From: Candidatus Babeliales bacterium
Lineage (GTDB): Bacteria > Babelota > Babeliae > Babelales > JBFXEV01
Direction of reading: 5' to 3'
Assembly (NCBI GenBank): GCA_050179755.1
Contig: JBFXEV010000001.1
Span: 677,940 to 741,939, forward strand
Length of the DNA: 64,000 nucleotides
Below the pieces are notes generated by a model, which did not search any database, was not told where the DNA came from, and saw only the letters and a list, made by a program, of their open reading frames with translations. The first letter of the stretch is position 1. Each line of letters opens with the position of its first letter. Made by a program: the position numbers and the translations under genes. This document shows, piece after piece, positions 1 to 63,223 of the stretch.

Positions 1-1956
1 TTCTGGCTCTCTTGGCGGACAAGTTTCAATTGCAGGAGCTTTCTCGTCAATCTTGGTGTCTACAACACAAGCCAATTCTCTGGTATAAAATCGTTCTATT
101 TCCTGCTTAATTATTACAGTTGGCTGGTTTGTTATTATTGCTTCATACAGAGCTTGGATTGATGGCTGATATCTATAACAAGTATTATTTTTAATGCTTG
201 TGCAAATAAGGCTGAGCGCTTCTTTTAGAACAGATTTTTGTGTTGTATCTTTTTCAATATTGTATGCATAGATTAATTGATTGTATTGATGGCAAAGAAC
301 ATGGAATTCTGGTTTTAAGAGCGAGGAGTTTGCTCTCAATTCTATATTCTGATACTGAGCAATATCTTTTAAGATGCCGCAAGGCTCAAAGAAAGCATCT
401 ATGAGTTTTTCACGCTGTTTATTTTGCGGTGAAATAATCTTAAAAATAGTATCAATTAATACAGGAGTAGCAGTTATTCCTACAAGTTGATAAAGTGCTG
501 CATGCACGGCATTATGTGCATCATCAGGAATTTGCCATGCCTCTTGTAGTCGTTTTTTCCAATCAAGGCGCATAAGCAACTCTGTATTGAGCGCATCTTG
601 TTTTTCCTTGTTGTTTTTTAGTGACTTGCGATCCTGCTCGCTTATGATTGCCCAACGAGGATCTTTTGTTACTTCGCGATAAATGCCATATTCATTGTAA
701 GTTGCAGAAAGGTACTTTTTATAATAATAATTATATAAATCTGCAGCATAATTTGGGCAACAAGAGCGGTATTCTTGAGCAACATGCCAATCATTTTTTT
801 GGCATGCATTAATGAGTTCAAGTAAATTACGATTTGTTTGATTGCAACGAATTATGGTTTTCCATTCGTTTGGATCACGATCATAAAAGTTTTCTTTGAT
901 CTTATAGCTAATATTGATAGGTGCAAAAGCGCACCAATTGACTGCGCGTGCAAAATAATCTGGATCTTCGAGGCGAGCAATAGCTCGAAATAATTTTTTT
1001 TCTTTTAGAATACTGTGCGCATTCTTTGTACCGAAGATTGGTAGTATAAAATTATTTAAAATAATATATTCAAATTCATCATTTGCATAATAGGGTTCCA
1101 GACTTCCATCTGCTCTAAAATAATATGATAACAATGCATTAATTGCATTGTGTAAATGTGCTCCATATAACCCAGGCAACCGTAAATTAATACACTTTAA
1201 ACGAGCTTCCACGTGCACGGATGGATCATTGGCATTTGTTTTAATAAGAACGTCTAAACAATATGATAGAGCTTGTGCTAAATCTTCTTGAAAATAAGGA
1301 TCATTAATCCAATAACGATTAATAAACTCTTGCTCTTGTTCATATTTACTTTTTCGCTTAGGAGTGGCGATTGGTTTGAACTGCATTTGAAAGTAGCCAT
1401 TACCTAACGTTGTTCTGAATCCATTTTGAATAGCAAAAGTATGTGGTTCATAAAAAGTATTATCAAACTTATATTCTATTGGCTGTGTACATAAGGGGTG
1501 GTGTAGTGTTTTAGGTGCTATGTGGGAATCTATGGTATTGGCAGTGCATTGCGCACTGATTTGGTTTTGCACATGAGCAAGAGTAGCAACGGCAGTTGGT
1601 TTTTGTATAATTTCTTGTTTTGGCAATGTTTGTGGATTAATGTAGTGCGCATATTCTTTGCCAAGTGCGGTGATTGCTATACCTTCTTTAAAAGGTTCTT
1701 TTTGTTGTTGCGCTGCAATATAAGAACAAGCAACTTCTGCTGCCGCATGGTTTATGTGCGTTTCTTGCATATTTTCAGTGAGAATGACTGCTCCTAAAAG
1801 AAGCTCGCATACCCCGAGCGCTTCAGCTGCAGAAATTGCTAATACCGCACCTTCATATATTACCAACGCCATTGGGCGAACGGTAGTTACAATAAGTTCA
1901 TTGAGTATAAAAAGGATACAGAGTGAAAAGACTAACTTGTTTAAATGCTTTTTCAT
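1..1956 (-). CDS. Large hypothetical protein with hydrophobic N-terminal leader; 3' end leaves the window (partial)
   Basis: Absent from the ORF track because it runs off the window. Reverse-strand reading from ATG at 1956..1954 stays open to base 1 (652 codons): MKKHLNKLVFSLCILFILNELIV... No recognisable catalytic motif. Confidence 0.6.
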   Translation of the reverse strand, partial: MKKHLNKLVFSLCILFILNELIVTTVRPMALVIYEGAVLAISAAEALGVCELLLGAVILTENMQETHINHAAAEVACSYIAAQQQKEPFKEGIAITALGKEYAHYINPQTLPKQEIIQKPTAVATLAHVQNQISAQCTANTIDSHIAPKTLHHPLCTQPIEYKFDNTFYEPHTFAIQNGFRTTLGNGYFQMQFKPIATPKRKSKYEQEQEFINRYWINDPYFQEDLAQALSYCLDVLIKTNANDPSVHVEARLKCINLRLPGLYGAHLHNAINALLSYYFRADGSLEPYYANDEFEYIILNNFILPIFGTKNAHSILKEKKLFRAIARLEDPDYFARAVNWCAFAPINISYKIKENFYDRDPNEWKTIIRCNQTNRNLLELINACQKNDWHVAQEYRSCCPNYAADLYNYYYKKYLSATYNEYGIYREVTKDPRWAIISEQDRKSLKNNKEKQDALNTELLMRLDWKKRLQEAWQIPDDAHNAVHAALYQLVGITATPVLIDTIFKIISPQNKQREKLIDAFFEPCGILKDIAQYQNIELRANSSLLKPEFHVLCHQYNQLIYAYNIEKDTTQKSVLKEALSLICTSIKNNTCYRYQPSIQALYEAIITNQPTVIIKQEIERFYTRELACVVDTKIDEKAPAIETCPPREPE

Positions 1957-4029: not shown

Positions 4030-4633
4030 TCTTCATTGAGCCCAGTGCTCAAAAATTAAGTAAGGGTTTTGGTTAGTGCGTAAAAGCATTAGTATCAGAA
4101 CCCTTAATTTTAGATCAAAAAACCTCTACAGCCGGTCTCAGGCTGGTTTCCTCCTTTGTTTATCCGGGCCTTTAGGGTCGGCAAACTACGAGAGGAAAAG
4201 TCCTCCTGCTCTCCTATACAATGTTGATTTTACCCTATAATCTCAGAGATTATTTACCTTTTAGCCCTCTGTAGACCCTTGAATTTTAACCTGGCTTTAT
4301 GTTACAATGAGAATATAGAATAGGCTCCGGTGCTTAATATAGGGTATTCTAAAAAAATTTACTCTGGCTGTATGAGTATTAGTTGCTTAATAAAGCACTC
4401 AGCATTCATAAAAAAGTTATGCGTTAATGGTAGTTAATGCAAGCATGCCATTTGGCGCTATTAAAGATATTTCCATGCAAGGTGATTTCTCATTGGTCGC
4501 TTATATGATAACGCCGATAGGCTAATGACAGAGAAAGTCTTTTTTGCTCTCAAAAGAAGAAGAAAAGTTTGAAAGAGCGTCAGCAGATTTTGATGTAGCA
4601 GTAAGTAAAGAGCACAACTAAAGGAGATTGTTA

Positions 4634-6202
4634 ATGTTGAGCAAAAAATTAGTTCTGTTTTGTGCTTTTTTCTCTCTGGCCAATCTTATGGGCATGGAGC
4701 AAGTGACTATTCAAACGGAAGAAGGTCAAGAATTTATTGTAGACGCAGACCTTGCAAAGCTTTCGGAAACTTTAAAGAATTTAATAGAAGATGCAGGAGG
4801 GGATCTACTTGAGAACTCATTGCCATTGCCTAATATTACAGGGGCCACATGGGCGCAGATTCAAAATTTATTACCCGCTGTTCGCGATATTATAGATGGC
4901 ACTCAAGATGCTCAGCAAAAAAAAGATGGCATTATTGCCGCATTAAAACAACTTGATGGCACTAATCTCATAGCATTTATTATTGCAGTTAATTATTTGG
5001 ATATTCGTATTCTATTAGAGTTAGCAATTGATGTTGCAAAACAGATTGATGTTAAAAAGATAACTCCCGCACAAATTGCTGCACTACCCAAAGAAATTCG
5101 CAATCCTATTATATTTGCACAGACATTAAATATTTTGGGTCCATTGAGTGACAGCTCATTGCAGGTTAAGCAAACTGCCGGTAAACGTTCAGTATTTTCA
5201 GTGGATGTATCGCCTGACGGCAGCAAGATGGTCTCAGGATCTAATGATAGAACCGTACGTATATGGGATGTTAATAATTTTAACTTACTTAAAACATTTT
5301 ATACCGTAAATATGGTGAGAGCGGTTTGTGTAACACCAGATGGCCGTAAGCTTGTTACTGGTTCAGACGATGGCGTTGTCCGTCTACTTGATATCAATAC
5401 CGGTGGGCTCCATCGGGTGTTTATGGGGCATATATTTCCTGTGACATCAATCTCTATAACGCCAGATGGTAATCATATAGTTTCAGGTTCTGCTGATGGT
5501 ACAATTCGCATATGGGATATTATGACAGGTGAACTTGTTGCCGTGTTGCGAGATTCTGTAAGCAAAGCGATCAATGCAGTCTTTGTAACACCTAATGGTA
5601 AACATATAATTTCAGGGTCCGATGATTATTCAGTTGGCATATGGGATATTGGAACATATAAGCCATTAGTTAAGCTAATAGGGCATACCGGCCCAGTTAA
5701 GGGAGTGTGGGCAACGCCAGATGGTGCCTTTATTGTTTCAGGGTCATTGGATGGGACAGTTCGTATTTGGGATAGCAACACTCACCAACAATTATACGAG
5801 CTAAAAGCCGATGGTCCTGTGAATTCTGTTGTTGTAACGCAGGATGGCAGTAAAATACTCTCAAGCTCTCAGAATGGCATACAAGTATGGGATAGAAATA
5901 ATCGTGCGTTACTTGTACATTTTATTGTTTTTCCTCATATGATTCGGGTTACGCCCGATGGCAAAACTATTGTGGGTTCCAGTGGTAACTTGTTATTCAA
6001 ATTTGATATGTCAATTTTGGATCGCTTTCCTGCTATAACACTACAGCAGGCTGAGTTCATTTGGTCGTATTTACAAGGCAGTCATCGTGAAGACTGGAGC
6101 CCTATTTTAAACCTTCTGGCACTTAGGCCAACAATGTTACAAGGAGTAGCGGGTGTGCAGGAAGTGCAGCCGCCCACAAAACGCCGGCGGGGTGCTCAGT
6201 AA
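4634..6202 (+). CDS. Leader + SKP1-like (POZ) domain + WD40 propeller fusion protein, paralog 1
   Basis: AAGGAG at 4621-4626 sits 7 nt before ATG 4634; the track start 4628 is TTG. Leader is LSKKLVLFCAFFSLANLMG. SKP1-collinear block: MEQVTIQTEEGQEFIVDADLAKLSETLKNLIEDAG...LPLPNI...IIAVNYLDIRILLELAIDVAKQI. WD blades: GSNDRTVRIWDV, GSDDGVVRLLDI, GSADGTIRIWDI, GSDDYSVGIWDI, GSLDGTVRIWDS. Confidence 0.85.
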   Translation: MLSKKLVLFCAFFSLANLMGMEQVTIQTEEGQEFIVDADLAKLSETLKNLIEDAGGDLLENSLPLPNITGATWAQIQNLLPAVRDIIDGTQDAQQKKDGIIAALKQLDGTNLIAFIIAVNYLDIRILLELAIDVAKQIDVKKITPAQIAALPKEIRNPIIFAQTLNILGPLSDSSLQVKQTAGKRSVFSVDVSPDGSKMVSGSNDRTVRIWDVNNFNLLKTFYTVNMVRAVCVTPDGRKLVTGSDDGVVRLLDINTGGLHRVFMGHIFPVTSISITPDGNHIVSGSADGTIRIWDIMTGELVAVLRDSVSKAINAVFVTPNGKHIISGSDDYSVGIWDIGTYKPLVKLIGHTGPVKGVWATPDGAFIVSGSLDGTVRIWDSNTHQQLYELKADGPVNSVVVTQDGSKILSSSQNGIQVWDRNNRALLVHFIVFPHMIRVTPDGKTIVGSSGNLLFKFDMSILDRFPAITLQQAEFIWSYLQGSHREDWSPILNLLALRPTMLQGVAGVQEVQPPTKRRRGAQ

Positions 6203-6328
6203 TAATTACCTGAGCTACAGGTAAAAATAGCTTATTTTACCCAAATTAATATTTTCTATTTGACATAATTTATACCTGTGATATACTGAATATACCCTAT
6301 ATTATTCAGGTTTAAATGGAGTATTATT

Positions 6329-7966
6329 ATGTTAAAGAAATTACTATTTTTTTCATTATTAACGGTCTCTTGCGCTTATGCCATGGAACCAGTGCCAGGT
6401 AAGCGGCAAAAACGTTATGATAATCCTCTAGAAGATGGTTCAAGTGAGGTTGACGCTTTGCCCAGATATTTATCAATTGAGCAGCCGGCATTCGTAAAAA
6501 GCGATGAGGACGTTGCTATTCAGACAGAGGATGACCAACACTTTATAGTTCCTATTCAACTTATTAAGTTATCTGAGACACTAAAAAATTTAATCGAAGA
6601 TGCTGGAATAGATCATCCAATTCCGCTACCTAATATTACTGCTTATACATGGCAGTTAACCCAATCATTGCTAGAGCGCGTGAGTGTTCTTTCGGGAAAT
6701 GATGCAGCCTTAGCGCCTCATGCAAAAAATTCTATTATAGCAACTTTACAAGATCTTAGATGCCAGGATCTTGTTGATTTTATTACAGCAGTTAATTACT
6801 TGGATATTCCAATTTTACTTAATATTGTGCTTGATGTTGTAAAGCAAGCAGATGTTTCTGTTATGACCCCGGAGCAGCTTATTCAGCTGCCAAAAGAAAT
6901 TGCCAATCCCATAGTTCTTGCGCATATTTTGCGGGCGTTAGCACCGTTACAAGGGCAGCAGCAACAAGTTATTAAGGGGTTTAAACGAGCGATTGCAGGA
7001 CTTTGTGTTAGTCCCAATGGTAACAAGATATATACCACGCATATCAATGGTATTGCGCGTATTTGGGATATGGCAACTGGTCAGCAGTTAAGTCAATTCG
7101 GGCATGCATCATGGGGGCGCCCAGGCTTGGGCTTATTGCCTGATGAAAGTGCTGCCCTATTAGGTTTTCATGCAAAGCCAATAATAATGTGGGATCTGGC
7201 AGCGAATAAGGTTTGTGAGAATGTTACCTTTGAGCGTCCTGATAATGCATTTTTAGGCGTACATACATTTCAAGTTACCCCTGATGGCACTAAAATTGTG
7301 TGCAAGGTGCACACGGGTTTCATCATTGTATGGGATCGTATCACTGGTAAAATTATTCATCGTATTTTAAGTGACGCAAGGCTTGTTTGTGTATCATCTG
7401 ATAGCAAGTATCTTGTTTTATGTGCGCTAAATGGTGCAATAACTCTACATGACATGGAATCAGGAGTACGCGTTGAGTCATTTCCTAAAATTGGAGATGG
7501 CAGTTGTGTTGATGGTGTTTTAATAACGCCAGATCAAAGCAAAATAATTCTAAATTATGCTGGTCGCGTATTATTTATAAAAGATTTTAAAACCGGTGCC
7601 GATCTTAACCGCATAGGCTATGATGAGCAAATTAGCGCAATATGCGTTACGCCAGATAGTTCTTATATATTGATTGGGCTTGTAAATGGTAACATACATA
7701 TGCATGAGCTTGCAACGGGTACATTAGTTGCCTGTTTTAAAGGTCATACAAAGGCAGTTTGTAATCTTAAAGTTGTGTCACAGGGTAGTCGTTTTGTTTC
7801 AGCATCTATGCTGGATAAGACCATGCGTATATGGAATCTAGATATATTTGCTCGCTTACGTGCATTATCTAAAGAGCAAGCAAAGTATATATGGACTTGC
7901 TTATATAAAAAAGAGATTGATAAGTGCCGTGTATATGTTCAAAATATTATAGTGCCACAAGACTAG
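6329..7966 (+). CDS. Leader + SKP1-like (POZ) domain + degenerate WD40 propeller fusion protein, paralog 2
   Basis: GGAG precedes the ATG. Leader is MLKKLLFFSLLTVSCAYA. SKP1-like block: VAIQTEDDQHFIVPIQLIKLSETLKNLIEDAG..PIPLPNI..ITAVNYLDIPILLNIVLDVVKQ. WD-like blades: GIARIWDM, PIIMWDL, GFIIVWDR, DKTMRIWNL. Confidence 0.82.
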   Translation: MLKKLLFFSLLTVSCAYAMEPVPGKRQKRYDNPLEDGSSEVDALPRYLSIEQPAFVKSDEDVAIQTEDDQHFIVPIQLIKLSETLKNLIEDAGIDHPIPLPNITAYTWQLTQSLLERVSVLSGNDAALAPHAKNSIIATLQDLRCQDLVDFITAVNYLDIPILLNIVLDVVKQADVSVMTPEQLIQLPKEIANPIVLAHILRALAPLQGQQQQVIKGFKRAIAGLCVSPNGNKIYTTHINGIARIWDMATGQQLSQFGHASWGRPGLGLLPDESAALLGFHAKPIIMWDLAANKVCENVTFERPDNAFLGVHTFQVTPDGTKIVCKVHTGFIIVWDRITGKIIHRILSDARLVCVSSDSKYLVLCALNGAITLHDMESGVRVESFPKIGDGSCVDGVLITPDQSKIILNYAGRVLFIKDFKTGADLNRIGYDEQISAICVTPDSSYILIGLVNGNIHMHELATGTLVACFKGHTKAVCNLKVVSQGSRFVSASMLDKTMRIWNLDIFARLRALSKEQAKYIWTCLYKKEIDKCRVYVQNIIVPQD

Positions 7967-7988: not shown

Positions 7989-9362
7989 TTATAATGCTTT
8001 TTCAATAATCTTAATCGAATCAGCAAATCCTTTTCTTAATCTTAATAAAAAAGACTTGCAATTTGAAAGTTCCGCAATAAGGTCTTGAATGCGCTCGTCT
8101 GTTAATCCAATCTTTTGCGCTTGTGCTTTGGTTAACCCATATTGATCGAGTGTGCCATCTAAAAATGCCTGAGCAATGCAGCGTGAGGGCACGGTTTGCA
8201 AGATATAGCTATATTGGCGCAATTGATAATAAAGATCACTTGCTAATGAACCGTTTTCATAGGCAACTTGTATTGCTCGCCACTGTGCTGCAAACTGTTC
8301 ATCCGTTACATCGTTTATTTTTAGATTTGTTCTTCCAAAAAAATCTGCCATAGTATTTTCTACTGATGCACTATACTGCCCCATTTTTGCATATGTTAAT
8401 AAAAATTCTTCAGTGAGCGTTAGGTCTTGCGTTAAAATACATTGTCTCAATGTTGCAAAGCAAATTTGATCTCGTTCAAGTGCTGTAATGTTGGATTCAA
8501 CTTCTTTATGTAGTGCAACTAATTGTGCGTGTAATTGCACGAGAAGCTCATTAGTTTTTTCATCTTCTTTAGTAATTCTTTTAAGAAGTTCTTTGCCGTG
8601 TGTTAATGCTTTTTCATACTTCCTATGATTCAATTCTTCTGGATTTGATTCTTGCAGAGGTTCTTGCATTTCAATTTTTTCTACTGCTTCAATCACTGGC
8701 ACTGATTCTGATGTTTGAGTTTGCTGCGTAGCAGCAATAATACTTTTAAATGGGGCAAATGAACCCCTTATTTTCTGTGCAAGAAACCGCCAAGCAGTTG
8801 ATACTGGTGTTGCTGTTTGTTCAAGTGTGGAGTGCTTAGATGATTGCTGCTCGGCTGCAGGTATTAATGAAACTGCGCTTGCATTATCAAGTGTGGCTAT
8901 ATACGTAATTTCACTTGGCGCTTCTTGCTGTTCTTGAGTTTTTTGCATTGTGTGAGCATCATAATCATCAACAATAAGGAGCAGTGGTTTTGGGCTATCT
9001 GCAAGATCTAACGTTCTTAACAACGCATCTATGGGTGATGCTTCATGTAAGCGCACAACAAATTCAGCAGGAGCTGCTCTATTAAATGGTAATTTGCAGT
9101 GATTAAAGAGTAATTCAATTTGGCCATGAATAGTGCGCGTGCAGGTGTTTGCTGCTTTGCATAATTTTTGTAAATCGCTTAGTGCTGGCCGTTCCGCATG
9201 CATGGATTTGCCAGCGGTATTAATGATTATCCAGCTTTTTCCCATTAGATTATCATCAGCATCTGGTTCCATGCAAAAAGTATTGGTTGTGATAACGCAT
9301 ATGATGATAAATACAATCTTTTTGCTAGTTGGCATTATATGACCAGCGTTATGATCTAACAT
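7989..9362 (-). CDS. Hypothetical leader-bearing protein, helical/coiled-coil rich
   Basis: 457-codon ORF with AAAGGA upstream of ATG 9362. Hydrophobic segment KKIVFIIICVITTNTFC is followed by MEPDADD. No recognisable domain. Confidence 0.6.
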   Translation of the reverse strand: MLDHNAGHIMPTSKKIVFIIICVITTNTFCMEPDADDNLMGKSWIIINTAGKSMHAERPALSDLQKLCKAANTCTRTIHGQIELLFNHCKLPFNRAAPAEFVVRLHEASPIDALLRTLDLADSPKPLLLIVDDYDAHTMQKTQEQQEAPSEITYIATLDNASAVSLIPAAEQQSSKHSTLEQTATPVSTAWRFLAQKIRGSFAPFKSIIAATQQTQTSESVPVIEAVEKIEMQEPLQESNPEELNHRKYEKALTHGKELLKRITKEDEKTNELLVQLHAQLVALHKEVESNITALERDQICFATLRQCILTQDLTLTEEFLLTYAKMGQYSASVENTMADFFGRTNLKINDVTDEQFAAQWRAIQVAYENGSLASDLYYQLRQYSYILQTVPSRCIAQAFLDGTLDQYGLTKAQAQKIGLTDERIQDLIAELSNCKSFLLRLRKGFADSIKIIEKAL

Positions 9363-20541: not shown

Positions 20542-21537
20542 CTATTTTTCTTGTGTTACCAATTTTGCAGGCTTATCTCTACGTAATCCTTTATATGTTG
20601 GATGGCGTAACTTATTATATTTGGTCCATTCAGTAAAACCAACTTCACACACTAACTGTGGTTTTACCCAATGCACGCCTTTAAGTGAATCGTCAAAGTT
20701 TACAAATGGATTTTTGTTTGTGGCTAATTTATTAAATTTATTTGTAAGATAGAGAAGTTCTTCTGTATCAAAGCCGGTGCCAATTTTACCAGCATAGTGT
20801 AATTTGCCGCGTTTATAATAGCCCACTAAAATTGCACCAAATCCAACGCGAGATCGTTGCGGGTCCGTGTAGCCGCCAATCACTAATTCTTGTTCTTGCA
20901 CACATTTGAATTTAAGCCAATCGGTAGAACGTTTGCTTTGATAGGTACTATTTTTATATTTTACTACCAATCCCTCCCATCCTTTTTTGCAGATAGTTCT
21001 AAAATAAGAGGCGCTTGCTTTGAGTTTGTGTTGTGTGTAACGTAATGGTTTTTCAAAAGTCATTACCTTACGCAATATTTGCTTACGCGTGATCAGTGGT
21101 AATTGAGTAAGGTCGTAGCCATCAAGATACATGATATCAAAGATATAATAATACACGGGAACGCGTGTTTTGGTGGCGGCTTCTTTGGTGCGGGCGTGCA
21201 TGCGCTGTTGCAAACGCGAGAAGTCAGAAAGGCCGTTTTTAAAAGCTACAATTTCTCCATCAAGAATCACGTTTGCTGGTATTTGTGCGATGGCATCTTG
21301 CACATCAGGGTAACTAATATTCATTGATAGGTGATTGCGTGATTCAAGAGCAACTTTTTTGCCTTTTTTTATGGCAACGCAACGCTCGCCATCAAGTTTG
21401 TGTTCGTAAAGCCAATCTGAGTCATAGAAGTAATTGTGGGTTAATGTTGCAAGCATTAAATTAAACGTGGAGGGTTGTGCTTTTTTTTTGAGTAATTTTT
21501 TTTGTTCTGGTGGTAAGTTTTCTAAAATGGGATTCAT
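20542..21537 (-). CDS. ATP-dependent DNA ligase (LigD/LigC-type ligase core: adenylation + OB)
   Basis: Motif I EHKLDGERC (catalytic Lys), then EGLVVK and WLKFK motifs. 331 aa. Confidence 0.85.
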   Translation of the reverse strand: MNPILENLPPEQKKLLKKKAQPSTFNLMLATLTHNYFYDSDWLYEHKLDGERCVAIKKGKKVALESRNHLSMNISYPDVQDAIAQIPANVILDGEIVAFKNGLSDFSRLQQRMHARTKEAATKTRVPVYYYIFDIMYLDGYDLTQLPLITRKQILRKVMTFEKPLRYTQHKLKASASYFRTICKKGWEGLVVKYKNSTYQSKRSTDWLKFKCVQEQELVIGGYTDPQRSRVGFGAILVGYYKRGKLHYAGKIGTGFDTEELLYLTNKFNKLATNKNPFVNFDDSLKGVHWVKPQLVCEVGFTEWTKYNKLRHPTYKGLRRDKPAKLVTQEK

Positions 21538-22225
21538 GTATGCTCCTGTTTTATACTGTGAGATTACAGAAATGTGTGAAGAGTTTACAAGTGTTTTATA
21601 GAAATATTGGATTCTATTTTAATGCATTATAGAAGTTTGCTTACTTATTAAAATTATTATATAGTTCCAGGGATTTTCTTTAATGTATGAATGCTTACGC
21701 TTCGCGCCTGTGCGGCGGGCATGAGACCTTTTGCTTCTCCAAAAGATCTCAACTAAAAGGAGCCAAGCTAAAGCTTGACCGGTCGGTAACGCCTAACCTT
21801 CCACGTATACAGCCTGCTAACGCAGCCTGTAACGAGAAAATAGGCTACCTAAAGTACTTTTACGGTAGGATTTTTAACTGACTATTTTACAATAAGTTTT
21901 CCGCCTCAAACGGCCGGCTGGGCCGACTTCATAAACTACCCTCCTTTAAATTTACGATTATATACCATTGTATAAGCAATGGTTTTTGTGACATTGATAG
22001 TTAAAAAATCCTGAAAAAGGGATACGTAAAGGATTCCCTCTTTTAGCTTCACTTTTTTACAGCGCACCATTGTAGCGCATTGGCACGATGAAACTTGTGG
22101 GTTTTTTGAAAATTTTAATAAAGAAGTCTGATGGAGCTGCAGCACTACTGCGCCTGAATAGGCGTGCAGTCAGGGCAAAGCGCATGGGCGTGACGAAACT
22201 CTTTATGCTTTTAGGAAATTAATAA

Positions 22226-22422
22226 AGTAGTTCTTATGCGCGCTGCGTGCATACTTCGTCGTGAAACGACGTGAAGTATAGCGCTCAGCGATCGAGCGGA
22301 ATGGTCCAGCGGAACGCTGGTGCTTTTTTGCGTCCTTTTTTTGCACAAAAAAAGGCATGCGCTGCCGCGCGTAGCGGTACCAGGGATAATGATTGTAAAA
22401 TGGTAAAGCGAACTTCTACATT
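22226..22422 (+). repeat. Structured roughly 200-nt repeat element, copy A
   Basis: Near-identical to 63015-63223. Contains four local hairpins, e.g. ccagcg-gaa-cgctgg and cctttttttg-ca-caaaaaaagg. Confidence 0.85.
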
Positions 22423-22561: not shown

Positions 22562-22897
22562 ATGTTCTTAACGAAAGTATTTGCCATGAAAAAATTAATT
22601 TTATTGGTTTGGTTGAGTGCATTTTCAGTAAACCTGATAAAGACGCAAGATCAAGAACAAGCATGTGATCCTTGCGAAAGAGCTTATTATTATATGTTGC
22701 GTACCGTGCAAGCAAAACCAGAACAATTTCAAGAATTATATGATAAAAGTTTAGAATATAAAGCGGAATGTAAAAAGCAACAAGAACAACAGATTAAACA
22801 GTTTGTAAAAACTAAAGATTACCAAAATTATGTTTTATCCTTTGGTTTAGGACTTGCTGTTGGTGGTGTTCTTGTTAAAGCTTTATTATCAAGCTAA
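22562..22897 (+). CDS. Small leader-bearing protein with C-terminal membrane anchor
   Basis: Likely true start is ATG 22586 (MKKLILLVWLSAFSVNLI). C-terminal hydrophobic SFGLGLAVGGVLVKALL. Confidence 0.5.
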   Translation: MFLTKVFAMKKLILLVWLSAFSVNLIKTQDQEQACDPCERAYYYMLRTVQAKPEQFQELYDKSLEYKAECKKQQEQQIKQFVKTKDYQNYVLSFGLGLAVGGVLVKALLSS

Positions 22898-29522: not shown

Positions 29523-31043
29523 TTATATCTTGTGGTTAAAAAAAATTGCTCCACCTTTTAACCGATATATAAACAGTTGATAAAAAAGAGTTAAGGGGTC
29601 TTGTTCGTCGGGATTTTCAGCAAGCACCGATGCAAGAGGCTTTATTACTTTGAGCATGATGTTTAAATTCCGAATGTATAAGTGGGGATCAACGAGTGCT
29701 TGCATGTGCGCTGACCGCTCTAAGGCCTGTGCCATTTGGAGTGGTGTTTGCCCTTGCTCTGTTGCGGTGCAGAGTAATCGAGTAATATTTTGCAAATGTT
29801 TTTTTGCATAGTGCCATGCAAGAATTTGTGCAATTTTTTGCTGTTCATCTGGGCCAAATGATGTAACAAACGTACGCGCAGTTGCAAAGTTCATAAGAGG
29901 AGCCAGATCTTCACTTACATCTACAGGTATATTATATACAAGTGGTCCATTCCAAAGGAGCGTCAGAAGATCTTGGCGTAATAATGTGCTCGCCGTAAGA
30001 TGTGTTTCTAAGAATTTTTGAATGCATAATGTTCTGAGTGTTGGCACGTTGCTTTGGTTTAATGCCTCTAGAATAGAATCAAGAATTGCGATAGGGTCTT
30101 CATGTACCGTAGCTTCTGCAGGAGGTTGATCGTTATTATTGTTATTAGCCGCTGCAGGTAATTGATTGTTATTGTTATTGACATCAAAAGGTACTTGATT
30201 GTTGTTATTATTAATATTTTCAATAAGCTGGGGCAAGGGCGGCGCCAGGGGCTCGGGTGGCGCAGGAATTGGAATAATGGGGTCTATGCAATATAAAAGC
30301 AATGCAAGCAAAGAATAGAGTTTATTATTATCTATGGCAGTATGCAGCGCGGTGTGTTTATTAACATCAGGGCCCACCCATGCGCGATGTTCAAGTAAAT
30401 GACCAATACAAAATGGATGTTCTTGTGTTATACCAAATACTATGGGAGGATAACGTTCTTTATTATAAGTATCAATATCAATTCCCGCTTGGTAAAGTAA
30501 CAGCAAAAGTAACTGGTCAAATCCTCCTTCAGCGGCAACATGTAGTGTTGAATTTTTTGTTCTTGGGTGCATGGCTTGGGGATTTATTCCTTGCAAGAGC
30601 AGACGTTGGACTTTAAGCATATTATTTTGCCGTACTGCCGAAAGCATGGCAAAAACTTCTGCTCGTTTTTGCGCTTCTGTTTTTAGGGGCGGTGGCGCTT
30701 CATAGTGCACATATTGCCGAGGGCGGGTGGATACCCGGAAAAATTCTTTTTGATGACGAGAAAGTGCTGTTTCTTTTTCTGCTGCAGGCTCAGGTTCTTG
30801 TTGTACTTCTTTTTTGGTTTTGCCTTGTGCAAAATTGGCAAAGTGCTGTGTAAGTGGCGAAGGGTTTTCTTGCTCTGGCGATGGTGTTCGCGAAGGAGCG
30901 CCTTTGCGCACTTTCCCTTCTTTAAATTTTTTAAAATGAGTAAAAAAATCTTCGTCAGGCGGCTTGGGAGGCTCCATTGCACGCATTATGTGAAAACTGG
31001 TAAATAAGAGAGTAAGAATAGAGGAGCGTACACGGTGTGCCAT
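29523..31043 (-). CDS. Ankyrin-repeat protein with leader and poly-Asn triple repeat
   Basis: AAGGAA precedes ATG 31043 (MAHRVRSSILTLLFTSFHIMRA). ANK units (NSTLHVAAEGGFDQLLLLLLYQAGIDID; HTALHTAIDNNKLYSLLALLL). NNNNNQVPFDVNNNNNQLPAAANNNNND. Confidence 0.75.
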   Translation of the reverse strand: MAHRVRSSILTLLFTSFHIMRAMEPPKPPDEDFFTHFKKFKEGKVRKGAPSRTPSPEQENPSPLTQHFANFAQGKTKKEVQQEPEPAAEKETALSRHQKEFFRVSTRPRQYVHYEAPPPLKTEAQKRAEVFAMLSAVRQNNMLKVQRLLLQGINPQAMHPRTKNSTLHVAAEGGFDQLLLLLLYQAGIDIDTYNKERYPPIVFGITQEHPFCIGHLLEHRAWVGPDVNKHTALHTAIDNNKLYSLLALLLYCIDPIIPIPAPPEPLAPPLPQLIENINNNNNQVPFDVNNNNNQLPAAANNNNNDQPPAEATVHEDPIAILDSILEALNQSNVPTLRTLCIQKFLETHLTASTLLRQDLLTLLWNGPLVYNIPVDVSEDLAPLMNFATARTFVTSFGPDEQQKIAQILAWHYAKKHLQNITRLLCTATEQGQTPLQMAQALERSAHMQALVDPHLYIRNLNIMLKVIKPLASVLAENPDEQDPLTLFYQLFIYRLKGGAIFFNHKI

Positions 31044-31317
31044 GATATTCCTTTCTTTGTATAGCATACTGTTTCTTTAAATATATGCACAAGAGTTACC
31101 CCCTAAAGCTCTTTGTGGTACACTAAAACAACGATACTATAGATATTTGGCCCGCTTTTATATTTTCTAGCCTACGTCGGCCGACAGGCGATAATTTTCG
31201 CTCACCTTTCCCTCGATACAAATCGCTACGCGATTCACTTGGGATGAGCGGTGTATCGACTTTATTCGATGTAGCCTTGGTGAGGATGGAAAAACGAGCG
31301 GTCCCTTAGGAAACATT

Positions 31318-34943: not shown

Positions 34944-35816
34944 ATGGAAAGAAAGGTAGGAAAGCACATAATCACCACCACCAATGAAGATGTAATTTGG
35001 TTTCCAAAATCAAAGATAACCAAGGGTGACGTGCTTAATTATTATGAAAAAATTGCACCAATTATGGTGCCACACATGTATGGTCATCCGGTAACAATGC
35101 TTCGGTATGTCGATGGCATACAAGGTGAAGGGTTTTATCACAAAGATGCGCCAACGTATTTTCCAAAATGGATCAAGCGATGTAATGTTGCAAAAAAAGA
35201 AGATGGCACAACAAGTTATGTGTTGTGTAATGAACCCGCAACGTTAGTTTATTTGGCACAACAAGCATGCCTTGTGCCACATCTCTGGCTGAGTAAATGT
35301 GATAAGCTTAATTCTCCTGATCTTTTAATTTTTGATTTAGATCCGGCAAAACAACCATTTTCATTTATTTGTGATGTTGCGTTACGATTAAAAGAAATCT
35401 TAGAAGCGAATAATTTGGTGCCATTTATAAAACTTACTGGCTCCCGCGGTTTACATGTTACCGTACCCATAAAACGTTTGTATACGTTTGATTTTGTTCG
35501 TGATTTTGCAAAGGAAGTTGGCCAAATTTTGGTTGAAGATGATCCTAAAAATCTTACCATGGAAATCAGAAAAGAAAAAAGAAAAGGGCGGTTATTTATT
35601 GATATTAATCGTAATGGATTTACCGCAACAGCTGTGGCGCCATATGCCATTCGTGCATATGAAAAGGCGCCGGTTGCAGCACCATTACTTTGGGATGAAG
35701 TGAAGAAAAAAGGTTTGACCGCTCAAAAATATAACATCTCAAATATATTCAAGCGGTTGTCGCGTATCGGCGATCCATGGCATGATATACAAAAGCATGC
35801 TACAAAGTTGCCGTAG
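34944..35816 (+). CDS. Stand-alone LigD-type polymerase/primase (PrimPol) domain protein
   Basis: ITKGDVLNYYEKIAPIMVPHMYGHPVTMLRYVDGIQGEGFYHKDAP, LIFDLDP, TGSRGLHV, AVAPYAIR. GGAGAG precedes the ATG. Confidence 0.85.
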   Translation: MERKVGKHIITTTNEDVIWFPKSKITKGDVLNYYEKIAPIMVPHMYGHPVTMLRYVDGIQGEGFYHKDAPTYFPKWIKRCNVAKKEDGTTSYVLCNEPATLVYLAQQACLVPHLWLSKCDKLNSPDLLIFDLDPAKQPFSFICDVALRLKEILEANNLVPFIKLTGSRGLHVTVPIKRLYTFDFVRDFAKEVGQILVEDDPKNLTMEIRKEKRKGRLFIDINRNGFTATAVAPYAIRAYEKAPVAAPLLWDEVKKKGLTAQKYNISNIFKRLSRIGDPWHDIQKHATKLP

Positions 35817-37761: not shown

Positions 37762-38682
37762 TTACTGTTCATGTTTTTCAAGTAATTGTGCAATATCAGT
37801 ATGGCCTGCTTCTTGTGCAAACATGCGCGGTGTTTGGCCTTTGTTATCGTTTGTGTAAACATCTGAGCCATGCGCCAAAAGTAATTCCACAATCTCTCTG
37901 TTTCCTCCATACGATGCATAATGGAGTGGAATTCTACCGAATTTATCTTTTATATTTACCTGAGCACCATGAGCTATAAGCAATTGTGGGGTTTCTAAAT
38001 TATATTGAATATGTAACGCCGTTCGGTTAAGGTCATCTTGAGCATTCACTTTCGCACCATGAGTCAGTAGTAGTTCAGTGATTTCTACATTTCTTGCACC
38101 ATGCAATGCTCTCCTGCCATCAACGTCTTTTGCGTTCACGTCAGCGCCATGGATCAATAGTAGTTTAACTATATCTTTCCAGAAGAGGTGGGGTGAATGA
38201 GTGTGTAAGGCTGTTTTGCCATCCATATCTTTTGCATTTACATCTGCGTTATGTGCTATCAAGAAAGCAGCCATTGGTGGAGTGAATGCGTAATGGAGTG
38301 CTGTTTTGCCACGATTATCTTTGGCATTTATATCTGCACCATGCTCTAGTAATAATTTAATGATGTTAGGGTGCCATGCCAGGTGAATTGCTGCATTTCC
38401 GTCATCATTTTTTATATTCACATTTGCACCGTGCGCTAATAATACTTTAATGAGTGATGTTTTCTCACTGCTACCCCATAATAATGAAGGATTCTTTAAA
38501 GCTTTTTTTAATAGTTCAGTTGCATCAGCACCAGCAGCTAACTTTTTCTTGATGATGAATATTTTTACTTTGTTAATGATAGTAACAATATAGTGCTGAA
38601 TGCGCGTCCATATATGTCTTGCAAAGATTATACCACCAACCAAAAGAATAAATCCTATCAAATAAATTAATGCGTTCTTCAT
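37762..38682 (-). CDS. Membrane-anchored ankyrin-repeat protein
   Basis: ATG 38682 has AAGGTG upstream; the track start is GTG. TM segment ALIYLIGFILLVGGIIFA. Six or more ANK units (GKTALHYA..LIAHNADVNAKD etc.). Confidence 0.85.
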   Translation of the reverse strand: MKNALIYLIGFILLVGGIIFARHIWTRIQHYIVTIINKVKIFIIKKKLAAGADATELLKKALKNPSLLWGSSEKTSLIKVLLAHGANVNIKNDDGNAAIHLAWHPNIIKLLLEHGADINAKDNRGKTALHYAFTPPMAAFLIAHNADVNAKDMDGKTALHTHSPHLFWKDIVKLLLIHGADVNAKDVDGRRALHGARNVEITELLLTHGAKVNAQDDLNRTALHIQYNLETPQLLIAHGAQVNIKDKFGRIPLHYASYGGNREIVELLLAHGSDVYTNDNKGQTPRMFAQEAGHTDIAQLLEKHEQ

Positions 38683-38884
38683 ATACACCTTGCATGAGAT
38701 ATTTGGTTTCTTATTTCTGTTCTTATCAAATACTTGGCATGTTATATTGGCAGAAGATGTATTTTGTTATTTGGTTATTGTTACCCGTATAGCTTGCCCT
38801 TTTTTAGTTTTTTTATCGCAAGCCCGTGAGTGAACATCGCTTGCGGTATGAATAAAGAGTTGTTGTATTCATGAGTTATTACGA

Positions 38885-62426: not shown

Positions 62427-62768
62427 GTGGTTGACCTTGGTTATAATCAACTTTTAAAAAGTTGACGATCGTGTATAAGCTAATTTGCTACAGCTTTAAG
62501 CAAGCGCAGAAAAATAACTTTATTAAACTTTAATAAAGGGAATATCATTGCCTTAGCGGCAATTTTTAAGACATCTTAAGTTATTGGAACTTAAGAGATT
62601 ATGCGGGTGGTGGTTTTCATTGGCGGCGTACTCCTATAGTATTAGCCATGTTAGTTTCTATTATTAATATATTTTATTGTTTGAGAACAGTCAAGGGTAT
62701 TTTGATTGCAAAGTGAAAAGTTCCGGTTTTTATAATGATTCTAGATTGTTTGCAGAGGCTTTGGTTAC

Positions 62769-62866
62769 GTAGAAGTTCCACTGGAGTTTTACCTGTATTA
62801 TCACTGGTGCCGCTGCGCGCGGCGGCGTACGCCTTTTTTGTGCAAATAAGGGTACAAAAAGCACTT
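62769..62866 (-). repeat. Truncated, diverged, inverted copy (3' half) of the structured repeat element
   Basis: The reverse complement gtgctttttgtacccttatttgcacaaaaaaggcgtacgccgccgcgcgcagcggcacc...ggaacttctac aligns to the 3' half of copies A and B. Confidence 0.7.
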
Positions 62867-63014
62867 AAGGGCATGCTATCCCTTAAGAATCCCCATACCT
62901 TATCAAGTAGATTATTAAATCAACTGGGTTAAATCTCGCCGTCCATATTTTTTGGTTTCTATGCATACTATTGTGTGGGTGGATGGATATTCACTGGCTC
63001 ATAATGAAAATTTT

Positions 63015-63223
63015 AGTAGTGGTTCCTCTGCGCGCTGCGTGCATACCTCGTCGTGAAACGACGTGAGGTATAGCGCTCAGCGATTGAGCGGAATGGTCCA
63101 GCAGAATGCTGGTGCTTTTTTGCGTCCTTTTTTTGCACAAAAAAAGGCATGCGCAGCCGCGCGTAGCGGCACCGGCAATAATGCTTACAAGTAATCAGCG
63201 GAACTTCTACATTTTATTTTAGA
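63015..63223 (+). repeat. Structured roughly 200-nt repeat element, copy B
   Basis: Aligns end to end with 22226-22422. Differences include two compensatory base-pair swaps. Confidence 0.85.

Follow-up and report, generated by a model that had tools for sequence, protein, structure and literature searches.

A small family of hairpin-rich intergenic elements with a covarying hairpin module in uncultured Babeliales

REP/BIME sequences and REPINs of gamma-proteobacteria are intergenic, GC-rich imperfect palindromes, which form mosaics and inverted pairs, keep their structure longer than their sequence and can serve as terminators or mRNA stabilisers. REPs are 20-40 nt long, present in hundreds of copies and accompanied by a RAYT gene. 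Correia elements (Neisseria), BOX (Streptococcus pneumoniae) and ERIC are modular intergenic repeats of 100-200 nt, which form stable RNA hairpins, have promoter- or terminator-like sequences aboard and lie beside gene promoters. Correia elements have clear terminal inverted repeats, a TA duplication and hundreds of copies; BOX elements are composed of defined boxA, boxB and boxC modules. Rickettsia palindromic elements and the GC clusters of yeast mitochondria are GC-rich palindromes that spread in an AT-rich intracellular genome, with nested insertions, and the former are frequently inserted in frame into genes. Here we analyze an element that resembles all of these, located at positions 22226-22422 of a 64,000-nt stretch of a Candidatus Babeliales bacterium genome (contig JBFXEV010000001.1, positions 677,940 to 741,939; the whole stretch is called the window below). 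The repeat is real: it is one variant of a family of small hairpin-rich intergenic elements confined to a few genomes of uncultured Babeliales (Dependentiae, or TM6, which are uncultured parasites of protists).

With REP/BIME the element shares, besides the traits listed above, GTAG...CTAC near the ends of its two full copies, A and B. However, the units described here are 90-400 nt long and, as far as the present data go, few; a conserved head with a promoter is found on some of them, and no RAYT gene was seen in the window. No sequence is common with Correia, BOX or ERIC (no Rfam match was obtained, and Rfam holds several such repeat families). Unlike Rickettsia palindromic elements, the units are strictly intergenic, oriented with respect to genes and equipped with a terminator-like hairpin. 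They also resemble multicopy small RNA (sRNA) genes: a second variant, called C-type below, starts with a promoter-like block, followed by ~75 nt of invariant body and by a terminator hairpin that covaries and has a U-tract, and paralogous copies exist inside one genome. They differ from such genes by a conserved 100-nt module of hairpins and tail after the terminator, and A and B are without a recognisable promoter. We know of no sRNA target or chaperone in Dependentiae, and in the literature on repeats and non-coding RNA (ncRNA) of this phylum we found no lineage-specific ncRNA or intergenic repeat family. The family is probably new, but not an unprecedented kind of bacterial element.

Copy A (22226-22422, plus strand) and copy B (63018-63213, plus strand) are full elements of one type. 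An initial annotation of the window had claimed that they match end to end, and this is borne out by an alignment of 197 columns (BLASTN E ~1e-57); B had been placed at 63015-63223, and the copy stands, but its ends are those of the best alignment, given above. The likeness is possibly ~12 nt longer on the 5' side, reaching ~22214 in A. Flanks are unrelated, the 5' flanks being only weakly similar. A covariance model (CM), called R1, gives 241.7 bits for A and 236.8 bits for B, and a 17-mer of the element occurs twice in the window against 0.11 occurrences expected. As annotated, the elements are richer in GC than their surroundings (0.49-0.52 vs ~0.38 for the window). Conservation is uneven along the alignment: the core (columns 12-156, 145 nt) contains 7 substitutions, i.e. 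95% identity, and is far more alike than the tail, whose 41 columns are ~66% identical with 13 substitutions and 1 gap. The two-copy picture of the initial annotation was correct for A and B but overlooked this divergence of the tail, as well as two further copies, C and D, presented below. That the cores are nearly identical beside diverged tails would be due to strong constraint, or else to gene conversion that did not go beyond the core.

Four of the ~7 core substitutions had been read as two compensatory pairs, and all coordinates and bases given for them are correct. T22255/A22275 becomes C63047/G63067, which converts U-A to C-G in hairpin HP1; G22311/C22315 becomes A63103/T63107, which converts G-C to A-U in the apex of hairpin HP2. 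A fifth substitution, previously assigned to a loop, is C22293 to T (C to U) and does lie in an unpaired stretch. T22363 to A is unpaired as well, and T22378 to C falls on a paired column and converts G.U to G-C. In the consensus fold of A and B (RNAalifold) the 6 substitutions on paired columns all preserve pairing: two doubles, one A-U to G.U and one G.U to G-C. The significance of this pattern was evaluated by permutation, the fold being predicted from A alone and the A/B substitutions re-dealt to random positions. At least two compensatory doubles arise by chance with P = 0.0035, and jointly with at most one broken pair with P = 0.0007. The compensatory signal between A and B is genuine, though it rests on two sequences.

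In the consensus fold, a closing stem (columns 1-8 with 185-192) joins the 5' and 3' ends; in A it pairs 22226-22233 (AGUAGUUC) with 22410-22417 (GAACUUCU) on the plus strand. This stem is longer in B, and its columns 4/189 are A-U in A and G.U in B. A long-range GCGC/GCGC pairing of 4 bp (columns 13-16 with 134-137) is invariant. The hairpins, all on the plus strand, are distributed as follows. HP1 (columns 17-64; A 22242-22289, B 63034-63081) is a 48-nt hairpin found in the A/B head only; it contains the compensatory change at 22255/22275, where A has U-A and B has C-G. HP2 (columns 71-106; A 22296-22331, B 63088-63123) corresponds to hairpin H1 of the family and bears the pair 22311/22315 in its apex, CCAGCG-GAA-CGCUGG (22306-22320), which is followed by U6; HP2 is terminator-like, and UGCUUUUUUG, which comes after this apex, has an alternative pairing back to GCGGAA. 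HP3 (columns 107-131; A 22332-22356, B 63124-63148) is a U7/A7 hairpin and corresponds to H2 of the family; in A it reads CCUUUUUUU-GCAC-AAAAAAAGG and is closed by a GCGU/AUGC clamp. HP4 (columns 139-153; A 22364-22378, B 63156-63170), or H3 of the family, is a small GC hairpin, GCUGC-CGCGCGUA-GCGGU in A. The AU-rich tail of A (22379-22422, plus strand) has a conserved end, GAACUUCUACAUU, whose motif is also present in C, in D and at two loci of relatives (L086 and L091). The helices listed in the initial annotation fared unequally. Both hairpins with compensatory changes are in the consensus and the cctttttttg/caaaaaaagg helix is HP3, but cgctc/gagcg is absent from it, as a mere alternative which competes with the base of the long hairpin. 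The multi-way junction, proposed to be closed by a long GC pairing, is a prediction with only the 4 invariant base pairs behind it.

The plus strand of A folds with -74.4 kcal/mol (z -3.4 vs shuffles) and that of B with -80.4 kcal/mol (z -4.0). Folding of the minus strand is weaker (-59.5 kcal/mol in A and -71.0 kcal/mol in B). In addition, the plus-strand consensus contains 7-8 G.U pairs, equivalent to A.C mismatches on the other strand. On the basis of these pairs and of the energy gap, the plus strand was taken as the folding strand. Folded as DNA, both strands beat shuffles (z -3.9 and -3.5).

The 3' half of A/B contains a 24-mer that matches a third site of the window, on the minus strand. 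This site corresponds to copy C (63000-62769, minus strand; 35.4 bits and E 6e-8 with CM R1), which has the 3' half in common with A/B at ~75% identity and a different 5' half. C is composed, always on the minus strand, of a promoter-like block (63000-62961; TGAATA, 17 nt, TAGTAT), a conserved head down to ~62891, H1 with its U-tract (62887-62864), H2 (62855-62827), H3 (62826-62809) and the tail motif GGAACTTCTAC (62779-62769). The 5' end of B adjoins the promoter-like block of C on the opposite strand. A second model, CM R2, was built on H1-H2-H3; it gives 80.4 bits for C. Copy D, a strongly diverged chassis, was recognised by inspecting the region upstream of a ligase gene (21783-21625, minus strand; 38.7 bits and E 2e-7 with CM R2). 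D shows the hairpin order of A, B and C on the minus strand: H1, GGUCAAGC-UUUA-GCUUGGCU followed by CCUUUUAGUUG; H2, GAGAUCUUUUG-GAGAAG-CAAAAGGUCUC; a GC-rich H3; and the tail CAAACTTCTATAATG (21639-21625).

Loci of relatives were collected to extend the family. L081, from the genome ENA ERZ25039473, and L082, from GCA_964479415.1, whose RNase HII is 80% and 78% identical, were reached via neighbouring proteins, as were L084 to L086; L087 to L091 have an ATP-binding cassette (ABC) ATPase 93-82% identical; L083 is a metagenome contig found by a DNA pattern of the C head; and L092 is a further relative. CM R2 was run on ~170 kb of clade DNA, and all its matches are members of the family, 12 in number: A, B, C and D in the window, L081m and L081p, L082m and L082p, L083, L085, L086 and L091. 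All 12 have a common chassis made of H1, H2, H3 and an AU-rich tail, on the same strand as the head. H1 is a GC-rich hairpin followed by a U-tract, which is the anatomy of an intrinsic terminator; in C-type copies its loop AUAGCAUG is conserved and its stem variable (UUAAGGG, UUAGGAGG, GCGAGGG or GCAGGG). H2 pairs a U-run with an A-run and is closed by a GC clamp that is variable and covaries. H3 is a GC hairpin too, but a weak one, and the tail ends with AACUYCUAC or CUUUUUCUAA. The U-run/A-run hairpin was also considered as a generic genome motif and rejected: a scan found practically none outside the members of the family.

H1 and H2 covary strongly in two alignments of the copies. In the CM-fitted alignment (A7) the covariation score is 0.304 against a shuffle mean of 0.144 (standard deviation, SD, 0.019), a value reached by none of 500 shuffles; the best slid control is 0.124, and 14 of the 25 pairs are changed on both sides. 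In a structure-blind MAFFT alignment (A6) the corresponding figures are 0.256 against 0.140 (SD 0.023), again 0 of 500 shuffles, a best slid control of 0.136 and 13 of 25 pairs. H3 (HP4) is without covariation support across the family. Selection on pairing, claimed by the initial annotation from A and B, is supported by these two copies and far more strongly for H1 and H2, across 9-12 members. The A/B element is not one indivisible unit of 200 nt but a combination of two pieces, a head that varies and a terminator-like chassis that is conserved and, in relatives, stands behind heads of unrelated sequence.

Heads are distributed as follows: the C head is carried by 7 copies and the A/B head by 2, whereas D, L082m and L085p have another head or none. 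The A/B head is GC-rich and dominated by HP1. No second occurrence of the first 95 nt of A/B was found in the data, either with BLAST using 7-mers or with unfiltered CM R1. With filters off, the matches of the latter in the window and the 12 related loci are limited to A and B, part of C and, weakly, C-type chassis; a 19-bit match inside an open reading frame (ORF) at 8656-8773 was judged spurious. The C head, ~125 nt, is nearly invariant between C and the copies in L081, L082, L083, L086 and L091. It starts with a nearly invariant block, GAGCCAGTTGATATCCATCCACCCACA...TATGCATAGAAAC, readable as a sigma-70-like promoter with TTGATA, 17 nt, nAnTAT, which passes a promoter scan in L081m (TTGATA-17-TAATAT, 9/12), i.e. 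in one of the three C-type copies scanned. Between this block and H1 lies a conserved body of ~75 nt, GACGGC..GAATTAACCCAGTTGAGTTAATAATCTGGTTGATAAGGTATGG. The C-type architecture (promoter-like block, invariant body and covarying terminator hairpin) is, as far as can be judged from sequence, that of a small RNA gene. A stable fold of the C-type head was rejected: RNAalifold is weak, there is no covariation outside H1 and a single copy reaches a z of only -1.2.

H1 gives terminator-scan matches in A (22306-22320), B (63098-63112), C (62887-62864), D (21780-21761), L081m, L081p and L083m, and the register of the U-tract is the same in A/B (UGCUUUUUUG) and C (GUGCUUUUUG). With its GC stem-loop and U-rich tract, H1 is a predicted intrinsic (Rho-independent) terminator.

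Some features of C-type copies deserve mention in their own right. Even the 17-nt spacer of the promoter-like block is conserved (ATCCATCCACCCACA). The block is found in the window at 62961-63000 (minus strand), in L081 at 12107-12147 (minus strand) and 12397-12447, in L082 at 10998-11050, in L083 at 5190-5240 (minus strand) and in L086 at ~1690-1740 (minus strand). Its opposite strand contains a mini-ORF, MH(T/I)xVWVDGYxLAH, which varies at its end and lacks a Shine-Dalgarno sequence. The block resembles a gene less than it does an operator, or a binding site, that overlaps a promoter. The 5' arm of C-type H1 is Shine-Dalgarno-like (AGGAGG or AAGGG), and the loop AUAGCAUG provides an AUG 5 nt further on; this combination is present in the window (62864-62887, minus strand), L081m, L081p, L083m and L091. 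The short Phe/Leu-rich ORFs that start from this AUG (e.g. MPPNCFLHPFLHKK...) vary in frame and length between copies.

The genomic context of the copies was then compared. A lies between the ligase gene (20542-21537, minus strand) and a small secreted ORF (22562-22897, plus strand), and points at the latter. The genes downstream of A and of B encode small secreted proteins without Pfam domain. In relatives, the intergenic region between the ORF and the ligase gene holds homologues of copy C: L081m, which is C-type, has the same site and orientation as A, with a flanking ORF 42% identical and a ligase 69% identical. D has the site and orientation of L081p, L082p and L085p. C is located upstream of an ABC transporter, with an ortholog at the same site in L091; elsewhere this locus contains unrelated sequence (L087, ATPase 93% identical), other GC-rich modules (L089) or none (L090). 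The C-type copy of L083 is upstream of thyX. Divergent pairs exist at four loci: D+A, C+B, L081 m+p and L082 m+p. Promoter-like sites of downstream genes (TTTACA, 16-17 nt, TATnnT) are found 25-100 nt past the 3' end of the elements. In total there are 4 chassis copies at 2 loci in the 64 kb of the window, and 1-2 per 20-kb locus of relatives. No transposase, integrase, reverse transcriptase or RAYT (Y1 transposase) gene was found among the ~40 ORFs of the window. Terminal inverted repeats are weak, only AGTAGTTC and GAACTTCTAC being complementary within one element, and no target-site duplication, a possibility raised by the initial annotation, was seen at the flanks of A, of B or of the D-A and C-B pairs. 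A miniature inverted-repeat transposable element (MITE) was rejected on both grounds.

Two neighbouring features can be added. A GC-rich hairpin, ACUGCGCCU-GAAU-AGGCGUGCAGU, lies at 22128-22202 (plus strand), ~60 nt upstream of A and not at B. In the region upstream of the ABC ATPase gene, at 62573-62694 of the window (minus strand), a conserved promoter (TTGACT, 17 nt, TATATT) is followed by a ribosome-binding site and a leader ORF of 8-10 codons (window 62620-62591, MKTTTRIIS*), whose stop codon is inside the hairpin CTTAAGTT-CCAA-TAACTTAAG. The same set of features is present in L087 (~120-250), L089 (~205-320) and L091 (~200-320). Judging from this arrangement, the region looks like a leader-peptide attenuator.

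Comparison with known families was negative. Rfam 15 was scanned with the window, both loci, a third GC-rich block and one relative, at gathering and permissive levels. There was no gathering-level match in the whole 64-kb window, tRNA and rRNA included, and permissive local scans gave chance-level matches only (best E = 0.044, 20.8 bits vs a 44-bit threshold); the known ncRNA family that the initial annotation had considered was not found there. BLASTN of A against plasmids and phages gave no match. The chassis-tail pattern had 0 matches in genome, metagenome and viral collections, which lack the window's own genome, and the C-head pattern matched one metagenome contig (L083) and no viral contig. 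Several known systems were examined and set aside: a retron msr-msd (no reverse transcriptase in the window, and small secreted proteins as A/B downstream genes), type I toxin-antitoxin (the H1-loop AUG ORFs differ in frame and length, and A and B are without that AUG), a riboswitch (unrelated downstream genes, each with its own promoter-like site) and a reading akin to diversity-generating retroelements.

How can these elements be interpreted? A and B are paralogues that belong to one variant of a modular intergenic element specific to this clade. Pair-preserving substitutions, G.U pairs and the folding asymmetry between strands together favour a plus-strand RNA with pairing under selection. 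The reading that we tentatively prefer, with a confidence that falls a little short of even, sees in A and B small structured RNAs that end at H1 and are followed by a back-stop formed by H2, H3 and the tail. The plus strand would be transcribed into a small structured RNA of ~100 nt made of the head and H1, H1 and its U-tract would stop transcription, and H2, H3 and the tail would form a back-stop or insulator 25-100 nt upstream of the neighbour's own promoter; selection on RNA pairing would keep the hairpins. Transcription of A and B as such, the ends of their transcripts and any function in trans are inferred parts of this proposal. Several observations weigh against it. A promoter scan upstream of A and B gave none that passes. 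There are only two copies of A/B type, which leaves one compensatory pair in favour of HP1. In the family, conservation is highest in the part made of H2, H3 and the tail, a fact that an sRNA ending at H1 leaves unexplained. Quasipalindrome correction, i.e. DNA mutation templated by the palindrome, can also yield compensatory changes in arms. Finally, presence or absence at the ABC transporter locus varies among close relatives and GC-rich insertions are nested in the elements of relatives; both fit a recombining or mobile DNA repeat.

Such a repeat, non-autonomous and comparable to REP/BIME, REPIN, Correia, BOX or Rickettsia palindromic elements, is a serious competitor, albeit an unlikely one in our opinion. 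Its hairpins would be single-stranded DNA or cruciforms recognised by a transposase or recombinase, or palindromes kept by template-switch mutation, and promoter- or terminator-like pieces would be passengers with an incidental effect on neighbouring genes. The modular mosaic, with alternative heads on one chassis, fits it, and it agrees with the 95% identity of A/B cores 40 kb apart beside diverged tails and flanks, with loci that vary by genome (the RNase HII-ligase gap, upstream of the ABC transporter, upstream of thyX), and with the ABC locus of the closest relative, L087, being without the element. Several short-read contigs end in or beside elements, as repeats would cause; the inverted pairs have outer tails that are mutually inverted (12/15 between D and A tails); and as DNA both strands beat shuffles, as stated above. 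A GC-rich unit (CCTGTCCGCCG...AGGAGG) is nested in hairpin loops of L082, L086 and L089. Against this, copies are few (the 64 kb contain 4, at 2 loci, and the 20-kb loci of relatives reveal no further ones), no target-site duplication or strong single-element terminal repeat is seen, and no transposase, integrase or reverse transcriptase is encoded among the ~40 ORFs of the window. Moreover, elements at orthologous positions keep their site and orientation across a protein identity of 69-86%, and the many G.U pairs unchanged in both copies speak against frequent palindrome correction and favour one strand. The choice between structured RNA and mobile palindrome, as the initial annotation had put it, is decided in part: selection on pairing is supported, and strict mobility is not, with no duplication found, weak terminal inverted repeats, no transposase in the window and few copies. 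An undescribed cassette system would be a further reading: alternative small-RNA heads (the C head with its promoter, the GC-rich A/B head and others) would be exchanged onto the conserved chassis by recombination at orthologous intergenic sites, with the chassis, arranged in divergent pairs, as the determinant of recombination or mobility. We regard it as quite improbable; if true, it would mean mobile small-RNA gene cassettes in an obligate intracellular phylum, for which neither Rfam nor the literature searched yielded a lineage-specific ncRNA family.

On the model of the initial annotation, the whole element would be one structured ncRNA of 190 nt with a multi-way junction; the internal hairpin and the U-tract would then be sequestered and would not terminate transcription. 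The closing stem (1-8/185-192) and GCGC/GCGC (13-16/134-137) do surround HP1-HP3, the stem is longer in B with one A-U to G.U pair, the U-tract is able to pair back to GCGGAA, and the tail motif complements two 5' ends, GUAG..UUC (A, B) and UAGAA (C-type). Yet no substitution falls on the long-range pairs, conservation between A and B is lowest in the tail (~66%), the terminator scan finds none after it, and complementarity of 5-6 bp between ends is not rare by chance; in addition the chassis also stands behind unrelated heads, D, L082m and L085p having no matching 5' strand. We consider this model improbable. If the element were a riboswitch-like leader or attenuator acting in cis on the gene that follows (in the case of A and B, a gene for a small secreted protein), this would account for all copies being co-oriented with and upstream of the next gene, and a conserved head with a terminator hairpin resembles an aptamer with its expression platform. 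This reading seems very improbable to us: downstream genes are unrelated (small secreted ORF, ligase, ABC transporter with its own leader peptide, thyX) and have their own promoter-like sites between element and start codon, the L086 element converges on the 3' end of RNase HII, and the H1 stem varies while the head is invariant, so no antiterminator pairing could be conserved. A small protein, either from a basic 51-aa minus-strand ORF (22358-22203) or from a plus-strand ORF (MVQRNAGAFL...), is hardly credible. Open frames span the core in both copies, and of the core substitutions 3 of 5 are synonymous when the minus frame is read and 3 of 4 when the plus frame is, counts too small for significance; but no Shine-Dalgarno sequence is present, the frames are not kept in C, L081m and L083m, being shifted there by an indel of 1 nt in the stem of H1, and the six-frame pseudo-protein of A has no homologue among 5.8 billion proteins.

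H1 and H2 constitute a structural module supported by covariation, and two covariance models are ready for annotating Dependentiae (TM6) genomes. If the heads are transcribed, they would be candidate regulators lying next to genes for secreted proteins and for DNA repair and replication (ligase, RNase HII, thyX). Should the family instead be a mobile repeat, it would be another case of GC-rich palindromes colonising an AT-rich intracellular genome, and would account for short-read assembly breaks at element sites in Dependentiae genomes.

The small GC-rich unit mentioned above, CCTGTCCGCCG...variable...GGCGTAGGAGG, is 28-50 nt long and occurs in loops or arms of element hairpins in both orientations. 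It was located in L082 (11130-11180 and, on the minus strand, ~10800-10830), L086 (~1440-1470, minus strand), L089 (~70-100) and L083 (~4850-4885). It may be a second, smaller repeat family targeting hairpins. In the window, a GC-rich hairpin block at 4131-4215 is intergenic, after a DEAD-box helicase gene, and has no Rfam match; its identification as signal recognition particle RNA was rejected for lack of Rfam support. Over 33 nt, the minus strand of this block (4158-4190) shares 88% identity with a long-hairpin module (..CCGAGCCTGAAGGCCCGGATAC..) inserted in the L082 and L086 elements.

The genes of the window fit Dependentiae, with ankyrin and WD40 proteins, a split LigD, Dps, UvrB and LeuRS. 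The functions of LigD are divided between an ATP-dependent ligase (20542-21537) and a LigD primase-polymerase (34944-35816), 13 kb apart; relatives have two ligase paralogues, one of which adjoins the primase-polymerase gene (L081 6544-8428, 12759-13757). Between 39300 and 55500, minus-strand ORFs without Pfam domain share repeated DNA (families D4, D5, D7, D9, D10 and D12), which suggests a locally amplified paralogous gene family, perhaps of effectors. Eukaryote-like repeat proteins (4628-7966, 18351-19196, 29523-31067, 37762-38688) comprise two WD40 beta-propeller proteins, one of them with a Skp1/POZ-like N-terminus, and three ankyrin-repeat proteins, a set consistent with a parasite of protists.

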